The position numbers were made by a program, and so were the translations under genes. Positions 28,022 to 36,890 of a stretch of DNA of 64,000 nt are shown piece after piece. The stretch is from sequence record OZ413487.1. One strand, written 5' to 3'. This DNA is from a phage. A model generated the notes under the pieces. The model searched no databases, was not told where the DNA came from, and was given only the letters and a program-made list of their open reading frames with translations. How positions within the stretch are numbered: position 1 is the first letter of the stretch; each line of letters opens with the position of its first letter.

Positions 28022-28563
28022 TTGTAAACAGTAATGAAACTAAAGCAGTACTAACCGGAAATATGGAGGTCACCAGGGGCTCAATTTCTCTGAACAAAGA
28101 GACTTTTGGGCTAATCATTAAAGGGATTTACGAAGATAAGGTGCTGGCAAGCTGCCGTGAACCAATCTTCAATGCTGTGGACTCTCATGTTGAGTCTGGA
28201 CGGGGTGATGTACCGATCATCATTCACTCCCCTACAGACCTTGAACCATACTTCTTTGTGCAGGACGTTGGATTGGGTATGTCAGAAGAGATGGTCCGCA
28301 ACACTTTCATGAACCTCGGGGAGTCAACCAAGCGCAACAGCAACGCTCTGGTAGGTAATAAAGGTGTAGGTTCAAAGGCCCCGTTCAGCATGGTTGACCC
28401 TGCAGATGTGGTTAGTGTGCCATACCAACACAATAGCGCCAAGTGCCGTGCATGCCGCTATGAGATTGTGGTAGCTCCGGAAGCACGCAAAGATGGAGAC
28501 CCTATTGAATATGTAGTTGATCGTGACGGTAACACTATCGACATTCTTTACGAGGAGGCGTAA
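28018..28563 (+). CDS. small GHKL-fold (histidine-kinase-like ATPase) protein
   Basis: Bergerat-fold boxes in canonical order: N-box EPIFNAVD, G1 DVGLGM, G2 GNKGVGS. Confidence 0.4.
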   Translation: MIVNSNETKAVLTGNMEVTRGSISLNKETFGLIIKGIYEDKVLASCREPIFNAVDSHVESGRGDVPIIIHSPTDLEPYFFVQDVGLGMSEEMVRNTFMNLGESTKRNSNALVGNKGVGSKAPFSMVDPADVVSVPYQHNSAKCRACRYEIVVAPEARKDGDPIEYVVDRDGNTIDILYEEA

Positions 28564-29933
28564 TGGAAAAAGGGCAGTATGATGTAGGCACAGATGCTGC
28601 CCTCGTTGCAATCATGAGCGGTGAGAATGTCTTCGTTTCAGGACCTGCAGGTTGTGGGAAGACGTATCTCATCAACATGATCCAGTCGATGTATGGAGAC
28701 TCTTGCATAACGGTTGCCCCGACAGGGGTAGCCGCTTTAAACGTTAATGGAGCAACAGCACACCGAACCTTCGATCTTGCAGCAGGTGTGAGCATGGAGT
28801 CAGACTGGACCGCAATAAGGGCAAAAACAGCAAAGCCTTTGAAAAGCAAGGCATTTACCATCCTAATTATCGATGAAATCTCTATGATCCGTGCTGATAA
28901 GTTTATAGAGATGGATAGGAAACTCCGCTTCCTTCGAAAAAATGACAAACCTTTCGGAGGCATACAGGTCATATTGTTTGGCGATTTTTACCAGGCACCT
29001 CCTGTTGTCTCTTCTATGGAGAAGGAAGCCTACTTCAACTTCTACCATACGGACCTGTGTTGCTATACCGAATCTTGGAAAGAGCTTGACCTCCACAACA
29101 TAGCCCTAATAGATCAGTTCCGACAGGAGTCTATTCGATTTGCCACAATGCTCAACTGTGTTCGTGAGGGTCGTCGCATAAAAGAGGTTGTAGCAGAACT
29201 TAATGCTCGCTGTTACAAAGGAGGTGTACCAACAGATGCTCTCACAATTTGCGCCACCAACAAACAAGCAGAGGAAGTGAACAGAAGGTTCTATGATGCC
29301 ATCAACGCCCCAGAGAAGGTATACACTGGTGAAATGAAGGGTAAGTTTCCCTCCACCCTGCCAGTTGAGCAGGAGATGAAGTTGAAAATTGGCATGAAAG
29401 TTATGATAACCGCCAACGATGTTGACCCGACGCACAAAGTACCTTATTATGTTAACGGAACACGTGCCACAATTGTTAAATTTAAGAACAAGGCGGTGGT
29501 GGTAGAGCTTGAAGATGGAACACAGGTTGACATAGAGCAGAGGTTGTGGGAGAATAACGAGTATAAGCCATCTCAGAGATACAACATTGCAGAAAGGAAG
29601 ATGGAGAAGTTTATAGAGAGGGTAGTGATTGGGTCATACAGGCAACTTCCTCTGAAATCTGGGTATGCCGTAACATCTCATAAAAGTCAAGGACTTACGC
29701 TAGATTGTTACAACCTGGACCTTGGAAAGAACGGAGCTTTCTCTCCTGGGATGACGTATGTTGCTTTGAGTCGGGTTAAGACAATACAAGGAATAAACTT
29801 GTTGCGTCCACTAAGAGAAGTTGACATTATTGTTGACCCGCGAGTCGTAGAGTTTTACAATACAACATTCCCTGACTTAGACAAAATTGTCAGGAAAGAT
29901 TTTGAAACCAGAGCCGAAGAGGGGGACGTATGA
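28563..29933 (+). CDS. dda: Dda-like SF1 DNA helicase (RecD/Pif1-like)
   Basis: Walker A SGPAGCGKT, Walker B ILIIDEISM, C-terminal SHKSQGLT ... YVALSRVK motifs and a size (456 aa) comparable to T4 Dda. Confidence 0.7.
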   Translation: MEKGQYDVGTDAALVAIMSGENVFVSGPAGCGKTYLINMIQSMYGDSCITVAPTGVAALNVNGATAHRTFDLAAGVSMESDWTAIRAKTAKPLKSKAFTILIIDEISMIRADKFIEMDRKLRFLRKNDKPFGGIQVILFGDFYQAPPVVSSMEKEAYFNFYHTDLCCYTESWKELDLHNIALIDQFRQESIRFATMLNCVREGRRIKEVVAELNARCYKGGVPTDALTICATNKQAEEVNRRFYDAINAPEKVYTGEMKGKFPSTLPVEQEMKLKIGMKVMITANDVDPTHKVPYYVNGTRATIVKFKNKAVVVELEDGTQVDIEQRLWENNEYKPSQRYNIAERKMEKFIERVVIGSYRQLPLKSGYAVTSHKSQGLTLDCYNLDLGKNGAFSPGMTYVALSRVKTIQGINLLRPLREVDIIVDPRVVEFYNTTFPDLDKIVRKDFETRAEEGDV

Positions 29934-30271
29934 GTTTGTGGAGAAATATCGTTAACTACGTGTGCGGCAATCCAACTCCTGAAGAGAAGGATGTTGTGAT
30001 TCACGATTTTACTAAAAGATCTCGTGAAAAAGATCTACTGCTAACAAAGGTGACTGATAAAGATCCTGCAGTAGGGGACTGGGCAGGTTTTGCGTTTACA
30101 TCGGACAAATACACCTTTAACAAAGGTGACTACCTTGTTGTGGATTTTAACGAAGACATTGAGGGTGCTGAACCTTACTATCAAACCCTTATTGTTGCAG
30201 GGTGTGTTGATCTCTCTGCAGGCATGCACAGTTTGATTCTTTTTGAGCTTGACTCTGAAGACCTTGAGTAG
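29930..30271 (+). CDS. hypothetical protein
   Basis: 113-aa ORF with ATGA coupling. Confidence 0.5.
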   Translation: MSLWRNIVNYVCGNPTPEEKDVVIHDFTKRSREKDLLLTKVTDKDPAVGDWAGFAFTSDKYTFNKGDYLVVDFNEDIEGAEPYYQTLIVAGCVDLSAGMHSLILFELDSEDLE

Positions 30272-30331
30272 TAAGATGTGAGTATAAAGGGGAGGCACTC
30301 CTCCCCACAAAAACTAAGGAAGCACTAAACG

Positions 30332-30634
30332 ATGAAACGTTATAAACCATACACTTTTGAAATCGATTTCGAACTTGACGATATGTTTACTGTGGAAGCT
30401 CAGGCAGTAGTTCAGTTGCCAGATCCGGAGTGCCGGGATTCTGATGTTGACTGTTACGGATTTAGACAAATCACCGATGTGCATGTTTACCACAACGGTG
30501 AAGAGGTGGACTTCCACCAACTGCCAAACGATATGCGCCACTCAATTTACAAACGTGCAGCCCGTGAACTAGAGTCCTATCTGGATGCAGCGACGACAGC
30601 AGCTGCATTTGCTGAAGAAGTGGGAGGTTTCTGA
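30332..30634 (+). CDS. hypothetical protein
   Basis: 100-aa ORF with RBS AAGGAAG. Confidence 0.5.
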   Translation: MKRYKPYTFEIDFELDDMFTVEAQAVVQLPDPECRDSDVDCYGFRQITDVHVYHNGEEVDFHQLPNDMRHSIYKRAARELESYLDAATTAAAFAEEVGGF

Positions 30635-31029
30635 TGATTACAGGTGTGAAGATTATCCAATACCACTTAACCAAATTGGAAGATGCTGAAAAAGAGCTTG
30701 CAGAAGTTCTGAATAGTGGATATACTTTACTATCATGCGCCTGCTCAGACACATACGCTGTGTGGACACTTATCCGGAAGGAAGAGCCTGCGTGGATCTT
30801 GGTGCCAAACCCTAAGATCATTAGTGAGGTGGATGACTACGCTCAGGACGGCCTGCCAGAAGGCTGGGAAGTATGGGAAGGTGGTGAAAACCCTGCACCA
30901 GGTAAGTGGGTAAAATACAAACTACGTAGCGGTGCACAGTACGCTGACTACTCTGATGACCTGGACTGGAGTCATTCTTCACCAGGATCATCTGCAAGTT
31001 CATATGATATCGTAGCTTTTCAGGAATAA
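30634..31029 (+). CDS. hypothetical protein
   Basis: 131-aa ORF. Confidence 0.5.
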   Translation: MITGVKIIQYHLTKLEDAEKELAEVLNSGYTLLSCACSDTYAVWTLIRKEEPAWILVPNPKIISEVDDYAQDGLPEGWEVWEGGENPAPGKWVKYKLRSGAQYADYSDDLDWSHSSPGSSASSYDIVAFQE

Positions 31030-31041
31030 GGAGAAGAAGGT

Positions 31042-31524
31042 ATGTCAGATTTTATGTGGAAAGTAGGTTACGCAACCCCTGAAATGTGTGAGGCTTGCTT
31101 TGTTAAAATAGGCCGCGAGGATATCGACAAAGTGATCCTTAAGTTTCGTGATGTGGCTGTAATCGGCAACCGAGTGCTTAAGCACTTAAAGAATCTGAAG
31201 CTCACCAAAAAGAAGTTCTTTGGACTTTTCGAAGAGAAGGTTGATGCTTGGACCCATTGCATTCAGGAAGCTAAATCTCACTACAGTGCCATCGTTACTC
31301 CAGAACGGGTAGCAAAGATGGAAGGATTCATCAACAGCACAGAATTTGAGTGCCTAAAGGCTGCCCTTGATAGCTATCCAAAGTGCCTCAAACACCTTGA
31401 CAAGTATGCAGAAAAGGATGGTGAAATGTATCTCACCCTGGACGCATATTATGAGATGCAAGAAATTTTAAATTTAGATTTGACATTGGTATCCACCGAG
31501 TATACAATAGGTATCCGGGTTTAA
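31042..31524 (+). CDS. hypothetical protein
   Basis: 160-aa ORF with RBS AGGAGAAGAAGG; terminator downstream. Confidence 0.55.
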   Translation: MSDFMWKVGYATPEMCEACFVKIGREDIDKVILKFRDVAVIGNRVLKHLKNLKLTKKKFFGLFEEKVDAWTHCIQEAKSHYSAIVTPERVAKMEGFINSTEFECLKAALDSYPKCLKHLDKYAEKDGEMYLTLDAYYEMQEILNLDLTLVSTEYTIGIRV

Positions 31525-31528
31525 CACT

Positions 31529-31558
31529 AGGCCCTGCCCGAAAGGGTGGGGCTTTTTG
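31529..31558 (+). terminator. rho-independent terminator (GCCCUGCCC-GAAA-GGGUGGGGC)
   Basis: 8-bp stem with GNRA loop plus T-tract; an identical hairpin recurs at 42527. Confidence 0.75.
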
Positions 31559-31575
31559 CATTAGGAGACAGCAAA

Positions 31576-32340
31576 TTGAAATTTATCTACAAAGAACACT
31601 ACCACAAAGGTGTTGTGTGGAGTCTATTTGACGGGTCTGGTGGTGCAGTCATTGACTGGGCAAAAGCTGGGTACCTGTGCCTGTGCTTTAATGCAGAAGG
31701 TGCTGATCACGGCAGTTATGCAGAGGTTATAACCGATCATCCCAACATTCACTATGTGGATTATTGGATTGACCCATGGTTCCCTCAGGAAACTTTTTGC
31801 ATGTACCCAGCTCCAGACTTTATTCTTGCATTTCCTCCGTGCACGCATTTAGCGGTATCAGGTGCTGCACATTTTAAGAAAAAGCTGGCTAAGGACCCCA
31901 TGATCCAAATTAATGCTGTAAAGGATGCTCGGGTTGCGGAAGAGCTGGGAGAGATTTACGATTGCCCGTGGCATGTAGAGAATCCTGTGGGTGTTATGTC
32001 CACACTGTGGCGTAAACCTGATTACCGTTTTCATCCTTCTGACTATGGTGGGTATTTACCGGAGGATGATGTAAACCCTTGGTTTCCTGAATTTATAGCT
32101 CCACGTGATGCCTATCCAAAAATAACTTGCGGCTGGATAGGTAATGGATTTATAATCCCGCCCACAAAACCTGTCCCGCAAATAGTTGACGCGGTTAGCG
32201 GGTATTCCATGCAACACGCCAAGCTGGGTGGAAAGAGTGCAAGAACGAAGATGATTCGAAGCCTCACACCACGTGGCTGGGCAAAAGCCGTATTCTTAGC
32301 AAACGAGCCTGTAGTAAGGAGCAGAATTAATGGGAAGTAA
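31576..32340 (+). CDS. DNA (cytosine-5)-methyltransferase-like protein, compact form
   Basis: Motif I (LFDGSGG), motif IV (FPPCTH, with Thr in place of the usual Gln) and motif VI (HVENPVG) in canonical order. Start placed at TTG 31576 after AGGAGA, because the track start at 31546 lies inside the terminator hairpin. Confidence 0.5.
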   Translation: MKFIYKEHYHKGVVWSLFDGSGGAVIDWAKAGYLCLCFNAEGADHGSYAEVITDHPNIHYVDYWIDPWFPQETFCMYPAPDFILAFPPCTHLAVSGAAHFKKKLAKDPMIQINAVKDARVAEELGEIYDCPWHVENPVGVMSTLWRKPDYRFHPSDYGGYLPEDDVNPWFPEFIAPRDAYPKITCGWIGNGFIIPPTKPVPQIVDAVSGYSMQHAKLGGKSARTKMIRSLTPRGWAKAVFLANEPVVRSRINGK

Positions 32341-34408
32341 ATTTATGGCATCTGCATACAACCGTTTCGGTGAGCCAAACCCGAAAGCAACTAAGTATAA
32401 AAGTGGGGGAAGTGTGAAACGAGACTATCGTGATGAAAAAGAGATTGAAACTGTAGAGACTGTTTTAGAAAATACTAAAATCGTCCCTGTCCCACAACAA
32501 AATATCGGTCTGATGGCTGCACAATATTTTGGTGTGCGATCAGCATTGTCCCAAGAAGACGGTGTGACAGTTACTGCAACATATTTCCCATATTACGACC
32601 GCTACGGGAATCTGTCCGGTTTCAAAAAGCGTGACTGGACGATTCCTAAAGAGCAAAGGGGCCATTTCTCCGTTGTTGGCATAGTAAAGGCCAACTCCCA
32701 GATGTTTGGTCAAAAGCTGTGTGCATCTTCCAACAACCGTAAGCAGATTAACGTTTGTGAGGGGGAAGGTGATGTTATTGCAGCATGGCAGGCTGCATAT
32801 CAGATACAAGTAAAAGGGATTCTCACCAACGCTAAAGCCCCGGCAAAGGTGAAGCAGTGGGCTAAAGAAGTCCAGGACGGGATCGATGCAGTTATCAACG
32901 GTGGTGATCTGGCAGGAAAACCATGCCTGCCTTTTGTTGGAATTAACTGTGGATGTGCAAACGCAGTAGATACTTTTGCAAACAATGAGAAGTTTATCCG
33001 TAGCTATGGAACAGTTGTGCTGGCAATGGATAACGATGCAGCTAACGAGGTAGAGAAGCAAAAACACGTCATTAAAGGTGTTGAGGCCACGCACAATATC
33101 GCAGCATTTTTGATGGCTGATAACGTTTACCACGTAGAATACCCTGGTGAAGTAAACGACCCTGACGGTGTAAAAGATATCCGAGACATGCTGAAGGCTA
33201 AAAAGCTGGAAGATATTGTCAACATGTTCCGGCATCCTGTTAAATATGTGCCTGATGCGGTGTCGGATTTAGAAGACTTCTCTATCGAGTCTTTGCGGAA
33301 AAAGACTTCCAACGGGGTAGATATCAGCGCAGAGTTCCCAAAACTGCAAAAAATGCTAAAAGGCTTGCACAAAGGGACACTCGTAATGCTTACAGGTCCA
33401 TCAGGTGGCGGTAAAACAACCGTAGCTAAAAAACTGGAACACTGTATTGCAAGATACCTAATGGACCCGACATGCCCGAAGGCTGATGACTATGAAGAGG
33501 ATGATCGTCTATGTATGATCCATCTTGAGGAGGACCCAGAGGAAGCAATTAACTCCTTGTATGCAAACCAGTTAGGGTTTGATGTTAAAGAGTTTGTTGA
33601 AGATCCTAGCCAGTTTTTAACTGATCAAGAACACGCAGAGATTCACCAATCATGGGCAAAAGCTGGAAAAATCAAAGTGTTCAAACATTTCGGGTCTATT
33701 CCGGTGGATGAGTTGATTACCAAGCTTAAGCAAATGGTTTGCCTGTACCATTGCCGTTATATTGTGCTGGATCACCTGTCCATGGTAATTTCAGGGCTTA
33801 ATGTTAAGGATGAGCGAAAAGAACTGGACATGGCTATGACTCAGCTGGCTGCGTTTTGTAAGCAGTTTAACGTGTTTATCTTGGTGATCGCTCACCTCAA
33901 ACGTACAGAGATTGTGCCTCCTAAGGACAAGGATGGTAACCCGTTACCTTTCTGGTATCCTGTGCGAAAAGAGAATTTGCGAGGATCGGCGGGGCTTGAA
34001 CAGTTGAGTTGGGTAGTCATAGGTGTCGAGGCCGAAGAAATGGTGGATCGTTCTCGTGGACGTGTCCGTCTGGTAGGTCTTAAAAACCGTCCAGCAAAAA
34101 CTCTAGGTATTGCTGACACTTTGGTTATGGACCCGCACACAGGTAAGTTCCATGATGCCAGTAATTGGTACTGGGACAAAGAAATGCAGATGTTTACAGA
34201 CGGAGAAGGTGGGGAGGTTGTTTGGAGACCTCAGGCCATGTTTGAGGACCAAGAGCATGCAGTTGTAGAAACACCTATGGGCAAGGTTGTAGCCGATAAG
34301 GTTGTAACTCCTACTATTAAGCCTGTTGACACGCAGGAAGACCTCCAGTACGATGATCCATCCTCTGATCCGGTCCCCGGTTTTGAGGATGATGAAACAC
34401 CTTTTTAA
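32330..34408 (+). CDS. bifunctional DNA primase / helicase (T7 gp4-like)
   Basis: TOPRIM-like acidic motifs (VCEGEGDVIAAWQ, VLAMDNDAANE) in the N-terminal half; RecA-like helicase Walker A (LTGPSGGGKTT) and ILVIAHLKR in the C-terminal half. Confidence 0.7.
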   Translation: MGSKFMASAYNRFGEPNPKATKYKSGGSVKRDYRDEKEIETVETVLENTKIVPVPQQNIGLMAAQYFGVRSALSQEDGVTVTATYFPYYDRYGNLSGFKKRDWTIPKEQRGHFSVVGIVKANSQMFGQKLCASSNNRKQINVCEGEGDVIAAWQAAYQIQVKGILTNAKAPAKVKQWAKEVQDGIDAVINGGDLAGKPCLPFVGINCGCANAVDTFANNEKFIRSYGTVVLAMDNDAANEVEKQKHVIKGVEATHNIAAFLMADNVYHVEYPGEVNDPDGVKDIRDMLKAKKLEDIVNMFRHPVKYVPDAVSDLEDFSIESLRKKTSNGVDISAEFPKLQKMLKGLHKGTLVMLTGPSGGGKTTVAKKLEHCIARYLMDPTCPKADDYEEDDRLCMIHLEEDPEEAINSLYANQLGFDVKEFVEDPSQFLTDQEHAEIHQSWAKAGKIKVFKHFGSIPVDELITKLKQMVCLYHCRYIVLDHLSMVISGLNVKDERKELDMAMTQLAAFCKQFNVFILVIAHLKRTEIVPPKDKDGNPLPFWYPVRKENLRGSAGLEQLSWVVIGVEAEEMVDRSRGRVRLVGLKNRPAKTLGIADTLVMDPHTGKFHDASNWYWDKEMQMFTDGEGGEVVWRPQAMFEDQEHAVVETPMGKVVADKVVTPTIKPVDTQEDLQYDDPSSDPVPGFEDDETPF

Positions 34409-34466
34409 TGTTTAACAAAGAGTGGGAGGGGTAGTACAACCGCCTCCCCTTTAAGGAGAACTGTAT

Positions 34467-36890
34467 ATGAGCATGTGGTCGTTCGACTTTGAGTCATCCG
34501 GTTTGCTGGAAGACCCAGATCTTTATTATCACTGCGGCCTGTTTAAAGAGCTGAATAAGAACCGTTTTATGCTGTTCCTTCCTCTAAATGACCGCACACA
34601 CTACTCCGAGGAGGATATAGAAAAGGCTAAGAACTTCATTCTGGCAAAGAAAACTCTTTATAAAGATTTTGAAGTTCGCATAGCAGATTTTTCAGAGTTG
34701 GAAGGTTGGCTTACAGGAAATTCTGACTGGTCACCAACAGCTTTGAACTGCCATAACTGCTACAGTTATGACTTTATGCTGATGGAAAGATTATCTGGTA
34801 TTCATTTTGATATGTTCCGTGATCCTAAATGTATGGGGACTATCAACGATCACCAGGTTAACCTGTTTGATACGTTGGCGATGAGCCGAATCTTGTGGCC
34901 TGATCGCCCTTTACCAAAAGGTTGTCCGGACTCTGTATTCAACCCGGTTACTAAGAAAATGCAGCCTGTTGGTCCTCACGGCCTTATGGCATGGGGCTAC
35001 GCCCTTGGTAACCAGAAAGTTCAAATTGATGACTGGCGCGATCTTCCGTTGTGGAAGTATGTGGATCGTGTATTCGAGGACGTTATCATCCAGGAGCTGC
35101 TCTGGAAAGAGCTGGTAGCGGAATCAAAAGGTGTATTCTACGGCAAATCTGACATGCAGAACTTTATGTACGATCCGGCCAAAGAGAAGCCGAAAGGGTT
35201 CAAGAAGATCACCTGGAAGAACGCATTACGTCGAGGCATGCTGCAGCACTTCCTGATGGAGCTGCAGGCCCGTCAGGGTGTATACTTCGACATAGATGGA
35301 GCTATTGCTTTACGTGACCGTTGCGATGCGTGGATGAAAGAAATCGCTGATCGTGTTGAACCACAACTACCTTTAAAAGAGCTGTCAATGTCTCAGCGGC
35401 CCAAGTTCCCTGAAAAGCCGTTTAACCAAGACGGGACAATCTCTAATAATGGTTGGAAATGGTTAAAAGATAAGCTTGGCTATCCTGTAGACATGAGTGC
35501 TTTAGAGTTCAAAGCCCTGCCTAAGCGAGCATTTACCTCTACAGGAGATGTCAGCAAGATGGGGATAAAATGGTGTGAAGAGATGGGCTGCAAAGACCCC
35601 GATAAGATGGCTGATTTCTTGAGAGGCTATATTAAGGGCACCTCCACACCACAACCCTTACCTAAAGAGCTGATGGATCAGGCAATAAGTGATCTGCAGC
35701 AGAAGCGAATGCCTGACTGCAAGATACCTATGAAAATCAGCAATCAGGACGACATCAAGCGATACCTAATCAGTGCTGGTTGGCTCCCAACAATGTGGAG
35801 AACTAAAGATGTAACTAAAGACAGCAAGAAGAAAGCTTTACCTGATGCAGATGTTGATGCACGAGTATATGCATATATGGACGAGCTTTTGGAGTCAGAG
35901 TATTGTGACCTAATTATCAACTTCTGGAACAAAACTGATGCTAAGTTCCAGACAACCGTGCACAAGTTCCGAAGCTTTCCTAACTCCGAAAGGATTAAAA
36001 AGGAAGTATTCGGGAAAATACGTAGAAAAGCCAGGGCACTTATTACTTCTCCGCAACTGAAAGATACGTTTGGACACCTATGCCCAAATCTTGAAAAATT
36101 GAACGGAGAGATGGCTAAAGATATCGTCTTGTGGTTATCATTGCGAAACCGCAGATCGGTCCTTGATCCAATCAAGGAGGATAAGGTTGATACTGGTCTT
36201 CTTAATCACCCACGTTTGAAGATTGACCATAAGCTTCCTGCTAAAAGCTCTGGATTAACAAACACTTCCAGACAGAAACACAGTATTTGTGCAAACATGC
36301 CTAAACCATCTCCTAAAGTAGTTATGGGTAAAGAGATGCGTAGTCTGTGGGGTGTTCCTCCAGGATACTTTGAGATCGGTATTGACGGGTCCAACTTAGA
36401 GCAGCTCATCGGGGCTTGGGGTGCCTTTGAGTTCGACAACGGCTTGTATTATGATGTTGTAAGTAACGGAGACGCACACCAAAACAATGCTGAGGCATAT
36501 ACAAAAGTGGCAGGCAGAGAGGTGTCCCGTAACGACGGTAAACCTATCACGTATGGGGTTATGTACGGGGCACAAAAAGATAAAGTTGCAGATATGCTGG
36601 ACATCTCCCCAGAGTTGGGACAAAGGGTAATCGATGCACTCTGGGATGCCAACCCAGGTCTTAAGGGGCGCAAAGAGGATCTGGAGAAATTCTGGGAAGC
36701 AACAGGTAAGAAGTTTATCTACTCTTTTGATGGTCATGCTATCTGGACCCGATCTAAACACTCTTTACTTAATGCATACCAACAAAATGGCGGTGCATCG
36801 TTGTGTGACTTAGTTGGAATACTCATGCACCACCAGATGGTGAAGCGTGGGTGGTACGATGAAGGTGTTCGTCGTATTATTTATTACCAT
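34467..36890 (+). CDS. family A DNA polymerase (T7 gp5-like), exon 1 (ends at the His codon of the HDE motif)
   Basis: 3'-5' exo motifs (FDFESSGL, YSYDFM), HGLMAWGYALG (compare T7 HALEAWGYRLG), polymerase motif A (GIDGSNLEQL), motif B (RNDGKPITYGVMYG) and QQNGGASLCDL. The reading frame hits a stop two codons after ...IIYYH. Confidence 0.8.

Follow-up and report, generated by a model that had tools for sequence, protein, structure and literature searches.

A probable compact, orphan C5-cytosine DNA methyltransferase encoded beside the primase-helicase gene of an rV5-like Vequintavirus

A stretch of 64,000 nucleotides of phage DNA from sequence record OZ413487.1 (hereafter referred to as the window) carries, at positions 31576 to 32340, a gene for a 254-amino-acid protein that is very probably an orphan S-adenosylmethionine (SAM)-dependent DNA cytosine-5 methyltransferase of the compact "Dcm-like" phage family phrog_757. 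The description of this protein as C5-cytosine methyltransferase-like is supported by its family match, by its predicted fold and by relatives scoring above the threshold of the Pfam profile PF00145. Formation of 5-methylcytosine (5mC) has been shown for a homologue with 54% identity; the activity of the window protein itself, its target and its biological role are inferred. The window belongs to an rV5-like Vequintavirus of Escherichia coli: the 3.5 kb surrounding the methyltransferase gene displayed 98.7% identity to Escherichia phage nomine and 97-98.5% identity to more than 100 rV5-like Vequintavirus genomes. An earlier reading based on the sequence and its open reading frames (ORFs) alone (hereafter referred to as the sequence-only reading) had considered the gene possibly novel, but it is already known and annotated in BASEL and other Vequintavirus genomes, and relatives in GenBank had been annotated with the same function. 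The names given to it in relatives are "putative site specific DNA methylase", "Dcm-like C5 cytosine methyltransferase", "DNA methyltransferase" and "hypothetical protein". In phage DrSchubert, bas50_0075 is the same 765-bp coding sequence with the same start (98.5% nucleotide identity), annotated "Dcm-like C5 cytosine methyltransferase".

Family, fold and a tested homologue

The window protein matched phrog_757 ("DNA methyltransferase") over its full length (E 6.7e-87), with residues 2-251 aligned to positions 5-226 of the 247 in the profile. The PF00145 profile was matched at E≤1 by 27 of 43 relatives, and its gathering score (22) was exceeded by P0054, P0069 and P0071 (24.7-28.5 bits), over profile positions 4-94 only, corresponding to motifs I-IV. 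Relatives were detected by tblastn in 1,505 of 50,697 phage records, spread over Vequintavirus, Phapecoctavirus, Drexlerviridae (T1-like, Tls and Webervirus), Dhillonvirus (HK578) and others, with hosts that are mostly Escherichia, Klebsiella and Salmonella. A search of 5.8 billion proteins yielded 3,567 homologues at 90% clustering, and an exhaustive search gave 1,027 clusters at 50% identity, almost all of 210-260 amino acids; the small size is therefore a trait of the lineage rather than the result of truncation. Some relatives are enlarged: P0245 (348 amino acids) ends in an HNH_2 endonuclease domain (E 5.9e-8), and P0261 (414 amino acids) has an N-terminal extension of about 170 residues with no Pfam match.

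The gene and the conserved elements of its product, with invariance scored on an alignment of 42 homologues (51-79% identity) and wider conservation on 113 representatives of the family (down to 29% identity), are as follows:

31576..32340, + strand: coding sequence of the compact 254-amino-acid, Dcm-like C5-cytosine DNA methyltransferase (phrog_757 family), predicted from the ORF, the phrog_757 match, the DrSchubert annotation, the model and the fold
31627..31644, + strand: motif I, F18-D-G-S-G-G23, predicted SAM-binding glycine loop after strand beta1; G20 and S21 invariant
31831..31848, + strand: motif IV, F86-P-P-C89-T-H91, predicted catalytic cysteine loop; P87, P88 and C89 invariant, T90 conserved in at least 90%
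31972..31992, + strand: motif VI, H133-V-E135-N-P-V-G139, at the end of strand beta5; E135, N136 and P137 invariant
32113..32142, + strand: motif VIII-like strand beta7, Y180-P-K182-I-T184-C-G-W187-I-G189, with a predicted strand at 184-189; Y180, K182, T184 and W187 invariant
32227..32277, + strand: basic C-terminal element, G218-G-K-S-A-R-T-K-M-I-R228-S229-L-T-P-R-G234, defined by conservation and the model

The sequence-only reading had placed motifs I, IV and VI in canonical order, as LFDGSGG (residues 17-23), FPPCTH (86-91) and HVENPVG (133-139), and this order was borne out. All the family-invariant residues (G20, S21, P87, P88, C89, E135, N136, P137, K182, T184, W187, R228, S229, P232 and R233) were present in the window protein, and the motif matches appear to be far more extensive than would be expected by chance. 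In the C-terminal element, G218, G219, T224, K225, I227, R228, S229, P232 and R233 were invariant among the 42 homologues; in the wide family, at least 90% conservation was retained at C89, E135, N136 and P137, and at R228, P232 and G234. Motif I aligned with SLFDGIATG of DNMT3A, DLFAGLGG of M.HhaI and SLFSGAGG of M.HaeIII, and C89 aligned with C81 of M.HhaI, C710 of DNMT3A and C98 of CmoX. Global alignment with hhalign set motif VI against FENV of DNMT3A and, with low confidence, K182/T184 against R790/R792 and W187 against W795 of the same enzyme.

Thr90 follows C89 in place of the conserved Gln of PCQ, as the sequence-only reading had recognized. Among 123 representatives (50% clustering), the commonest forms of motif IV were FPPCTDL (45), FPECTDL (8) and FPPCTHL (6), and Gln followed Cys in none of the 12 commonest forms. 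The corresponding motif is GGSPCNDLS in human DNMT3A (sequence identical at 285/285 positions to PDB 5yx2_A) and GSPPCSAFS in SpCmoX (translated from the phage genome), so that, with PCN in one enzyme and PCS in the other, the Gln of PCQ is a weak criterion for C5 enzymes. The proposal that PCT hints at altered chemistry consequently lost its footing, because Thr is the family norm, DNMT3A and SpCmoX have PCN and PCS, and a 54%-identical PCT homologue raised 5mC.

An AlphaFold2 model based on the 42-sequence alignment had a predicted local distance difference test score (pLDDT) of 91.1 and a predicted template modelling score (pTM) of 0.90. The predicted order of strands and helices was that of a class I methyltransferase, with beta1 before the glycine loop, beta4 before PPC and beta5 ending in ENP, followed by a beta6/beta7 pair and three C-terminal helices. 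A C5-methyltransferase fold, on which the sequence-only reading depended, was recovered both by Foldseek and by family-profile alignment. The first 42 Foldseek matches in the PDB were all catalytic domains of DNMT3A or DNMT3B (best E 4.3e-7). The structural-match table gave 13.4 for DNMT3B, 12.5 for SpCmoX (8yf3), 12.1 for both the prophage CP-933R methyltransferase and DNMT3A, 10.8 for M.HhaI, 10.5 for M.HaeIII and DNMT1, and 9.5-9.9 for Dnmt2, with generic Rossmann dehydrogenases reaching at most 9.2, from rank 19 onwards. The matches among viral structure models were family members and cytosine methyltransferases. With hhalign, the family profile aligned over motifs I-IV with DNMT3A (E 1e-4) and with SpCmoX (E 3.3e-4), and the family profiles aligned weakly with M.HhaI alone (E 0.018 and 0.14).

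The window protein is 54% identical over 235 residues to the Dcm of phages K42 and KarlJaspers (Bas06), and also 54% identical to the protein of JakobBernoulli (Bas07). It shares with K42/KarlJaspers Dcm the FDGSG, FPPCT, ENPVG and GGKSxRTKMIRSLTPRG motifs, the compact length class and the condition of an orphan near a helicase gene; the KarlJaspers and JakobBernoulli genes are 711 bp long, and both of their proteins carry PCT. Relative to KarlJaspers Dcm, the window protein is extended by nine residues at the N terminus and by about 10 at the C terminus, and it has His rather than Asp after PCT. The window gene also differs in its setting, as it lies in a 137-kb myovirus and overlaps a primase-helicase gene. 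According to the K42 study, K42 and KarlJaspers/Bas06 share 95.4% genome identity, and all four K42 escapers from retron Ec86 (Eco1) had lesions in or just upstream of the 711-bp dcm gene (10.1101/2023.08.16.553469). The same study reports that expression of K42 Dcm was toxic only alongside retron Ec86. Liquid chromatography-mass spectrometry with a synthetic 5mC standard detected high levels of 5mC on the multicopy single-stranded DNA (msDNA) of Ec86 from Dcm-expressing cells, and low levels with a C82A/E128A/K175A/K176A mutant or an empty vector; the authors located the 5mC in the DNA stem-loop of the msDNA (10.1101/2023.08.16.553469). Later papers cite the published version and accept the mechanism, in which Dcm is the trigger of retron Ec86. 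The mutated residues C82, E128, K175 and K176 align with C89, E135, K182 and I183 of the window protein. On the basis of the K42 Dcm data and this residue alignment, the closest tested relative is a DNA methyltransferase that forms 5mC.

Compact architecture and likeness to named enzymes

The positions of the landmark residues in the window protein and in three reference enzymes are:

Window protein: catalytic Cys C89; motif VI E135; motif VIII K182; motif X region R228; motif VIII to motif X, 46
M.HhaI: C81; E119; R165; N304; motif VIII to motif X, 139
DNMT3A: C710; E756; R792; R891; motif VIII to motif X, 99
SpCmoX: C98; E156; R202; R350; motif VIII to motif X, 148

The spacings from Cys to Glu (46 residues) and from Glu to motif VIII (47 residues) are ordinary in the window protein. 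A length of about 254 amino acids had been thought to leave little room for a target-recognition domain (TRD), and the landmarks agree with this view: 46 residues separate K182 from R228, versus 99-148 in DNMT3A, M.HhaI and CmoX. With so short an interval between motif VIII and the Arg-Ser motif, a normal TRD is excluded as the DNA reader. Two candidate DNA contacts can be proposed from the sequence. One is the loop rich in Pro and aromatic residues at positions 153-183, between beta6 and beta7, in which L161, P168, P171, D178 and Y180 are invariant. The other is the basic GGKSxxTKxIRSxTPRG element at positions 218-234, which might stand in for the TRD; residues 196-254 include 11 Lys/Arg versus two Asp/Glu. 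In the model, the C terminus consists of a helix at 222-229, a loop and a helix at 233-251. The 218-234 element, with I-R228-S229-L-T-P between the two C-terminal helices, is also a candidate, at a non-significant level of statistical support, for motif X. Different alignments placed this region in conflicting registers, with GGYL...GNGF on motifs IX-X of M.HhaI, IRSLTPRG on the TRD loop of DNMT3A, and IRSLTPRG on motif X of CmoX; the register retained here is the one that fits the predicted strands and helices.

The catalytic domain of DNMT3A/DNMT3B was the best profile match (E 1e-4), at an identity of just 12-17%. Like the phage family, DNMT3A has a short TRD and an SLFDG motif I, lacks Gln after Cys (PCN-DL versus PCT-D/H-L), and carries W-x-GN downstream of motif VIII and an Arg-Ser pair in its C-terminal motif. 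DNMT3 differs in that its motif VIII has RxR and is separated from motif X by 99 residues, among which are a TRD loop and motif IX. It acts as a DNMT3L-assisted tetramer with chromatin-reading domains. The resemblance may reflect either ancestry or convergence on a small TRD. The order of motifs I, IV and VI is shared with the classical C5 methyltransferases (PF00145: M.HhaI, M.HaeIII and E. coli Dcm), but these have PCQ, ENV and RxR where the window protein has PCT, ENP and Lys/Thr, and the window protein has no TRD of 80-140 residues, recognizable motif IX or GN(S/A)V motif X. The "Dcm-like" name notwithstanding, its relationship to E. coli Dcm is not close. SpCmoX, the DNA cytosine C5-carboxymethyltransferase of Synechococcus phage S-B43 (PDB 8yf3), resembles the family in its PPC-S/T loop followed by xxxV(A/S)G and in an Arg in the C-terminal motif region; it differs in its length of 372 amino acids, its full TRD and its SPPC, QARER and GRMVPP motifs. 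Unlike the window gene, the SpCmoX gene, which was retrieved from the S-B43 genome via cmoA, adjoins a phage cmoA and an amide ligase gene.

Weighing of alternative functions

Several observations weigh against assignment of the window protein to the C5 DNA methyltransferases. It had no NCBIfam match and no Pfam match, with PF00145 undetected even at E≤10, and no PDB chain was matched significantly when the protein or either of two family profiles served as the query, M.HaeIII coming closest over motifs I-IV (E 0.33); the wider family profile drifted to short-chain dehydrogenase/reductase (SDR) Rossmann proteins in the PDB chain search. The RxR of motif VIII is replaced by K182/T184 in a low-confidence global hhalign alignment (family consensus K-K/R-T), and the second Lys of the K42 pair, K176, corresponds to Ile183. 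The alignments of motifs IX and X with M.HhaI, DNMT3A and CmoX (global and segment-wise hhalign) were non-significant and mutually contradictory. The activity assay concerns a Drexlerviridae homologue, K42 Dcm, acting on msDNA, and no Vequintavirus enzyme. In the K42 study, the CCWGG target was assumed from host Dcm, with support from CCTGG msDNA mutants that lose defence (10.1101/2023.08.16.553469). The host of that experiment, MG1655, has its own Dcm, as stated in two further papers (PMC4924334, PMC12369378). The low 5mC content of msDNA in this dcm+ host without the phage enzyme suggests that the latter is no simple duplicate of host Dcm; it may have another target, act on another cytosine or have access to hairpin or protein-bound DNA. 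Finally, Vequintavirinae were described in BASEL as "exceptionally susceptible" to restriction-modification (RM) systems, which renders a broad protective role unlikely and speaks for narrow specificity, as opposed to hypermodification or action at frequent sites.

One alternative is that the transferred group is not methyl; for example, carboxy-SAM, a product of E. coli CmoA, might serve as the donor and yield 5-carboxymethylcytosine, the product of phage CmoX. Arg350 of CmoX replaces Asn304 of M.HhaI and binds the carboxymethyl group, and CmoX accepts only carboxy-SAM. It has PPCS, not PCQ, and the family has PPCT; the invariant R228-S229 pair ends the penultimate helix, roughly at the G-N-S of motif X, and may match the carboxy-SAM-binding position of CmoX, and carboxy-SAM is supplied by the host through cmoA. 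However, Gln is likewise missing after the catalytic Cys of DNMT3A (PCN), a SAM-dependent methyltransferase whose C-terminal motif contains Arg891-Ser892, so that neither PCT nor Arg-Ser is diagnostic of carboxy-SAM use. The alignment of R228 with CmoX R350 was non-significant (E 0.93) and ambiguous in register by one residue, and the SPPC hallmark of CmoX (PMC12783734) is absent, FPPC being present in the window protein and family-wide. CmoX genes usually accompany a phage cmoA and a ligase gene, whereas the window gene has helicase, primase-helicase and polymerase neighbours, and 0/83 of the phage records with a cmoA match were from Escherichia phages. The K42 homologue raised 5mC, as judged against a synthetic standard, but the assay is described for C5 methylation only and 5-carboxymethylcytosine goes unmentioned in the accessible passages of the study (10.1101/2023.08.16.553469). 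We consider it very unlikely that carboxy-SAM or another SAM analogue is used; if carboxymethyl transfer did occur, more than 1,500 sequenced enterobacterial phages would have 5-carboxymethylcytosine in their DNA, alone or beside 5mC.

Small residues after the catalytic Cys (PC-S/T) are common in RNA m5C methyltransferases, and a tRNA or rRNA substrate, as for Dnmt2, might account for the small size of the protein. This reading seems extremely improbable: the higher-scoring structural matches were all DNA enzymes, the gene is placed in a DNA-replication module, and the 5mC of the K42 study came from purified msDNA and was assigned by the authors to its DNA stem-loop. The protein might also have lost its catalytic activity, or been repurposed, and act in replication as a methyltransferase-like DNA-binding factor together with the primase-helicase, the gene of which overlaps its own. 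This would fit the lack of a recognizable TRD, the degenerate motifs VIII to X, the recurrent location of family members near helicases, the structural match named as a helicase (see below) and the lack in the BASEL data of any restriction phenotype linked to the gene. We give very little credence to this reading, as a non-enzyme would not be expected to keep its SAM loop, catalytic Cys and ENP Glu invariant across hundreds of clusters, and the 5mC detected with the K42 homologue was lost in the quadruple-residue mutant. A DNA C5-cytosine methyltransferase thus remains the preferred identification.

Locus, expression and proposed role

The signals around the methyltransferase gene and its downstream neighbour are:

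32330..34408, + strand: primase-helicase ORF of 692 amino acids with an ATG start, directly downstream of the methyltransferase gene
32330..32340, + strand: 11-nt overlap of the methyltransferase stop and the primase-helicase start, ATGGGAAGTAA, from the ORF listing
31563..31567, + strand: Shine-Dalgarno sequence AGGAG, 8 nt before the TTG, read from the sequence
31529..31559, + strand: hairpin (31529-31554) with an 11-bp G+C-rich stem and a GAAA loop, followed by a T-run, from a scan for terminator-like sites
31480..31508, + strand: candidate sigma-70-like promoter, TTGACA-17-TACAAT, with 11/12 matches to the consensus as its only basis, in the last codons of the upstream ORF

The + strand ORF extends from a GTG at 31546 to 32340, and translation from the TTG at 31576 to the TAA at 32340 yields the 254-amino-acid protein. 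This start and length fit those of the 254-amino-acid cluster representative P0001 (99% identical), which stands for 332 member sequences. The GTG at 31546 was rejected as a start codon, as it lies inside the hairpin stem and has no ribosome-binding site. The hairpin had a minimum free energy of -22.8 kcal/mol (z -2.2) and may terminate the upstream unit or, alternatively, be a stabilizing or attenuating hairpin in the 5' leader of the methyltransferase transcript. Promoter-like sites were found three times in the region, versus 2.9 expected; the succession of such a site, the hairpin with its T-run and the methyltransferase ribosome-binding site could be a terminator plus promoter arrangement.

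The sequence-only reading rightly described the gene as lying upstream of the primase-helicase gene, which it directly adjoins; the 11-nt overlap suggests co-transcription of the two and possibly translational coupling. It also holds that the enzyme is an orphan: in the window and in the DrSchubert annotation, the neighbours are all replication genes (helicase, primase-helicase and DNA polymerase), no nuclease gene flanks the methyltransferase gene in the window or in annotated relatives, and a PADLOC defence-system search of the methyltransferase gave no match. Family members in Drexlerviridae and Dhillonvirus are also found beside or near helicase genes, and a structural match from BFVD, A0A6J5SE15 (uncultured phage, 26% identity), is a 1,397-amino-acid protein named "Helicase/UvrB, N-terminal". 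The association with helicase genes would fit methylation of replicating DNA.

Upstream of the methyltransferase gene, a 456-amino-acid helicase ORF (28563-29933), the DrSchubert homologue of which is annotated "DNA helicase", and several small ORFs (29930-31524) stand between rIIB and the methyltransferase/primase-helicase block. A 1,333-bp cassette of DrSchubert encoding a "putative N6 adenine methyltransferase" is absent from the window at 30272-30335 (junction 30327-30335). In DrSchubert, it lies between the homologues of the ORFs at 29930-30271 and 30332-30634. The start codons mark the exact point of the break (AAACGATGA versus AAATGATGA), and the 100-amino-acid ORF at 30332-30634 therefore inherits the leader of the methylase. 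A Bas51 gene likewise named "putative N6 adenine methyltransferase" is the GATC methylase that triggers retrons Asa1 and Squ1 (PMC12548924). Sixteen unannotated GenBank records named "Campylobacter phage" (including MG065654, MG065666, MG065677 and MG065647; host Campylobacter jejuni) displayed 98% identity to window positions 31000-34500 and are probably mislabelled or contaminating coliphages.

A mechanism can be outlined from the chemistry of the family. The gene would be expressed together with the replication genes, its stop overlapping the primase-helicase start, and the enzyme would bind SAM through the FDGSGG loop and flip out a target cytosine from the DNA. In the PPCT loop, Cys89 would then attack C6, with Glu135 (ENP) and Lys182 holding the base, and the methyl group would be moved to C5, producing 5mC on phage DNA as it replicates and, incidentally, on that of the host. 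The benefit would likely be protection from a narrow set of methylation-sensitive nucleases, and a known cost in the family is the sensing of the modification by host immunity (retron Ec86/Eco1). Restriction evasion by the methyltransferase is plausible but unproven. In the BASEL data, the methyltransferase genes of Drexlerviridae showed no simple link to restriction resistance, and neither methylome nor restriction-digest data on the DNA of Vequintavirus emerged from literature searches. The DNA of the Klebsiella phage KP36 (Webervirus) is completely resistant to EcoRII at 155 predicted sites, and homologues with 47-48% identity were detected by tblastn in other Klebsiella weberviruses; the resistance of KP36 is suggestive only, because its authors credited it to host Dcm.

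Palindrome statistics for the window gave no clear signal of a target, with CCWGG mildly depleted (observed/expected ratio (O/E) 0.74). GTAC (O/E 0.61, z -7.8) and CTAG (O/E 0.58, z -6.6) were strongly under-represented over positions 1-64000, and several 6-bp palindromes were nearly absent from both strands: GGCGCC (0), CTCGAG (0), CGATCG (2), GGGCCC (2) and TGGCCA (4). From the sequence, this depletion suggests avoidance of restriction sites rather than protection by modification. Much likelier than carboxymethyl transfer, though still less probable than not, is the possibility that 5mC is made at a short or non-CCWGG motif that is read by a new, TRD-less mechanism.

For genome annotation, the identity of the gene can be regarded as settled. 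The remaining interest lies in how, across the family, a C5 enzyme of 230-250 residues recognizes DNA when the place of a TRD is taken by about 46 residues, and in whether the Vequintavirus copy exposes the phage to methylation-sensing immunity (retron Ec86/Eco1), as the Drexlerviridae homologue does, which is a question for the family as a whole. Because the family is present in about 3% of sequenced phage genomes, mapping its specificity would help in engineering phages and in selecting therapy phages against hosts with retrons or restriction systems.

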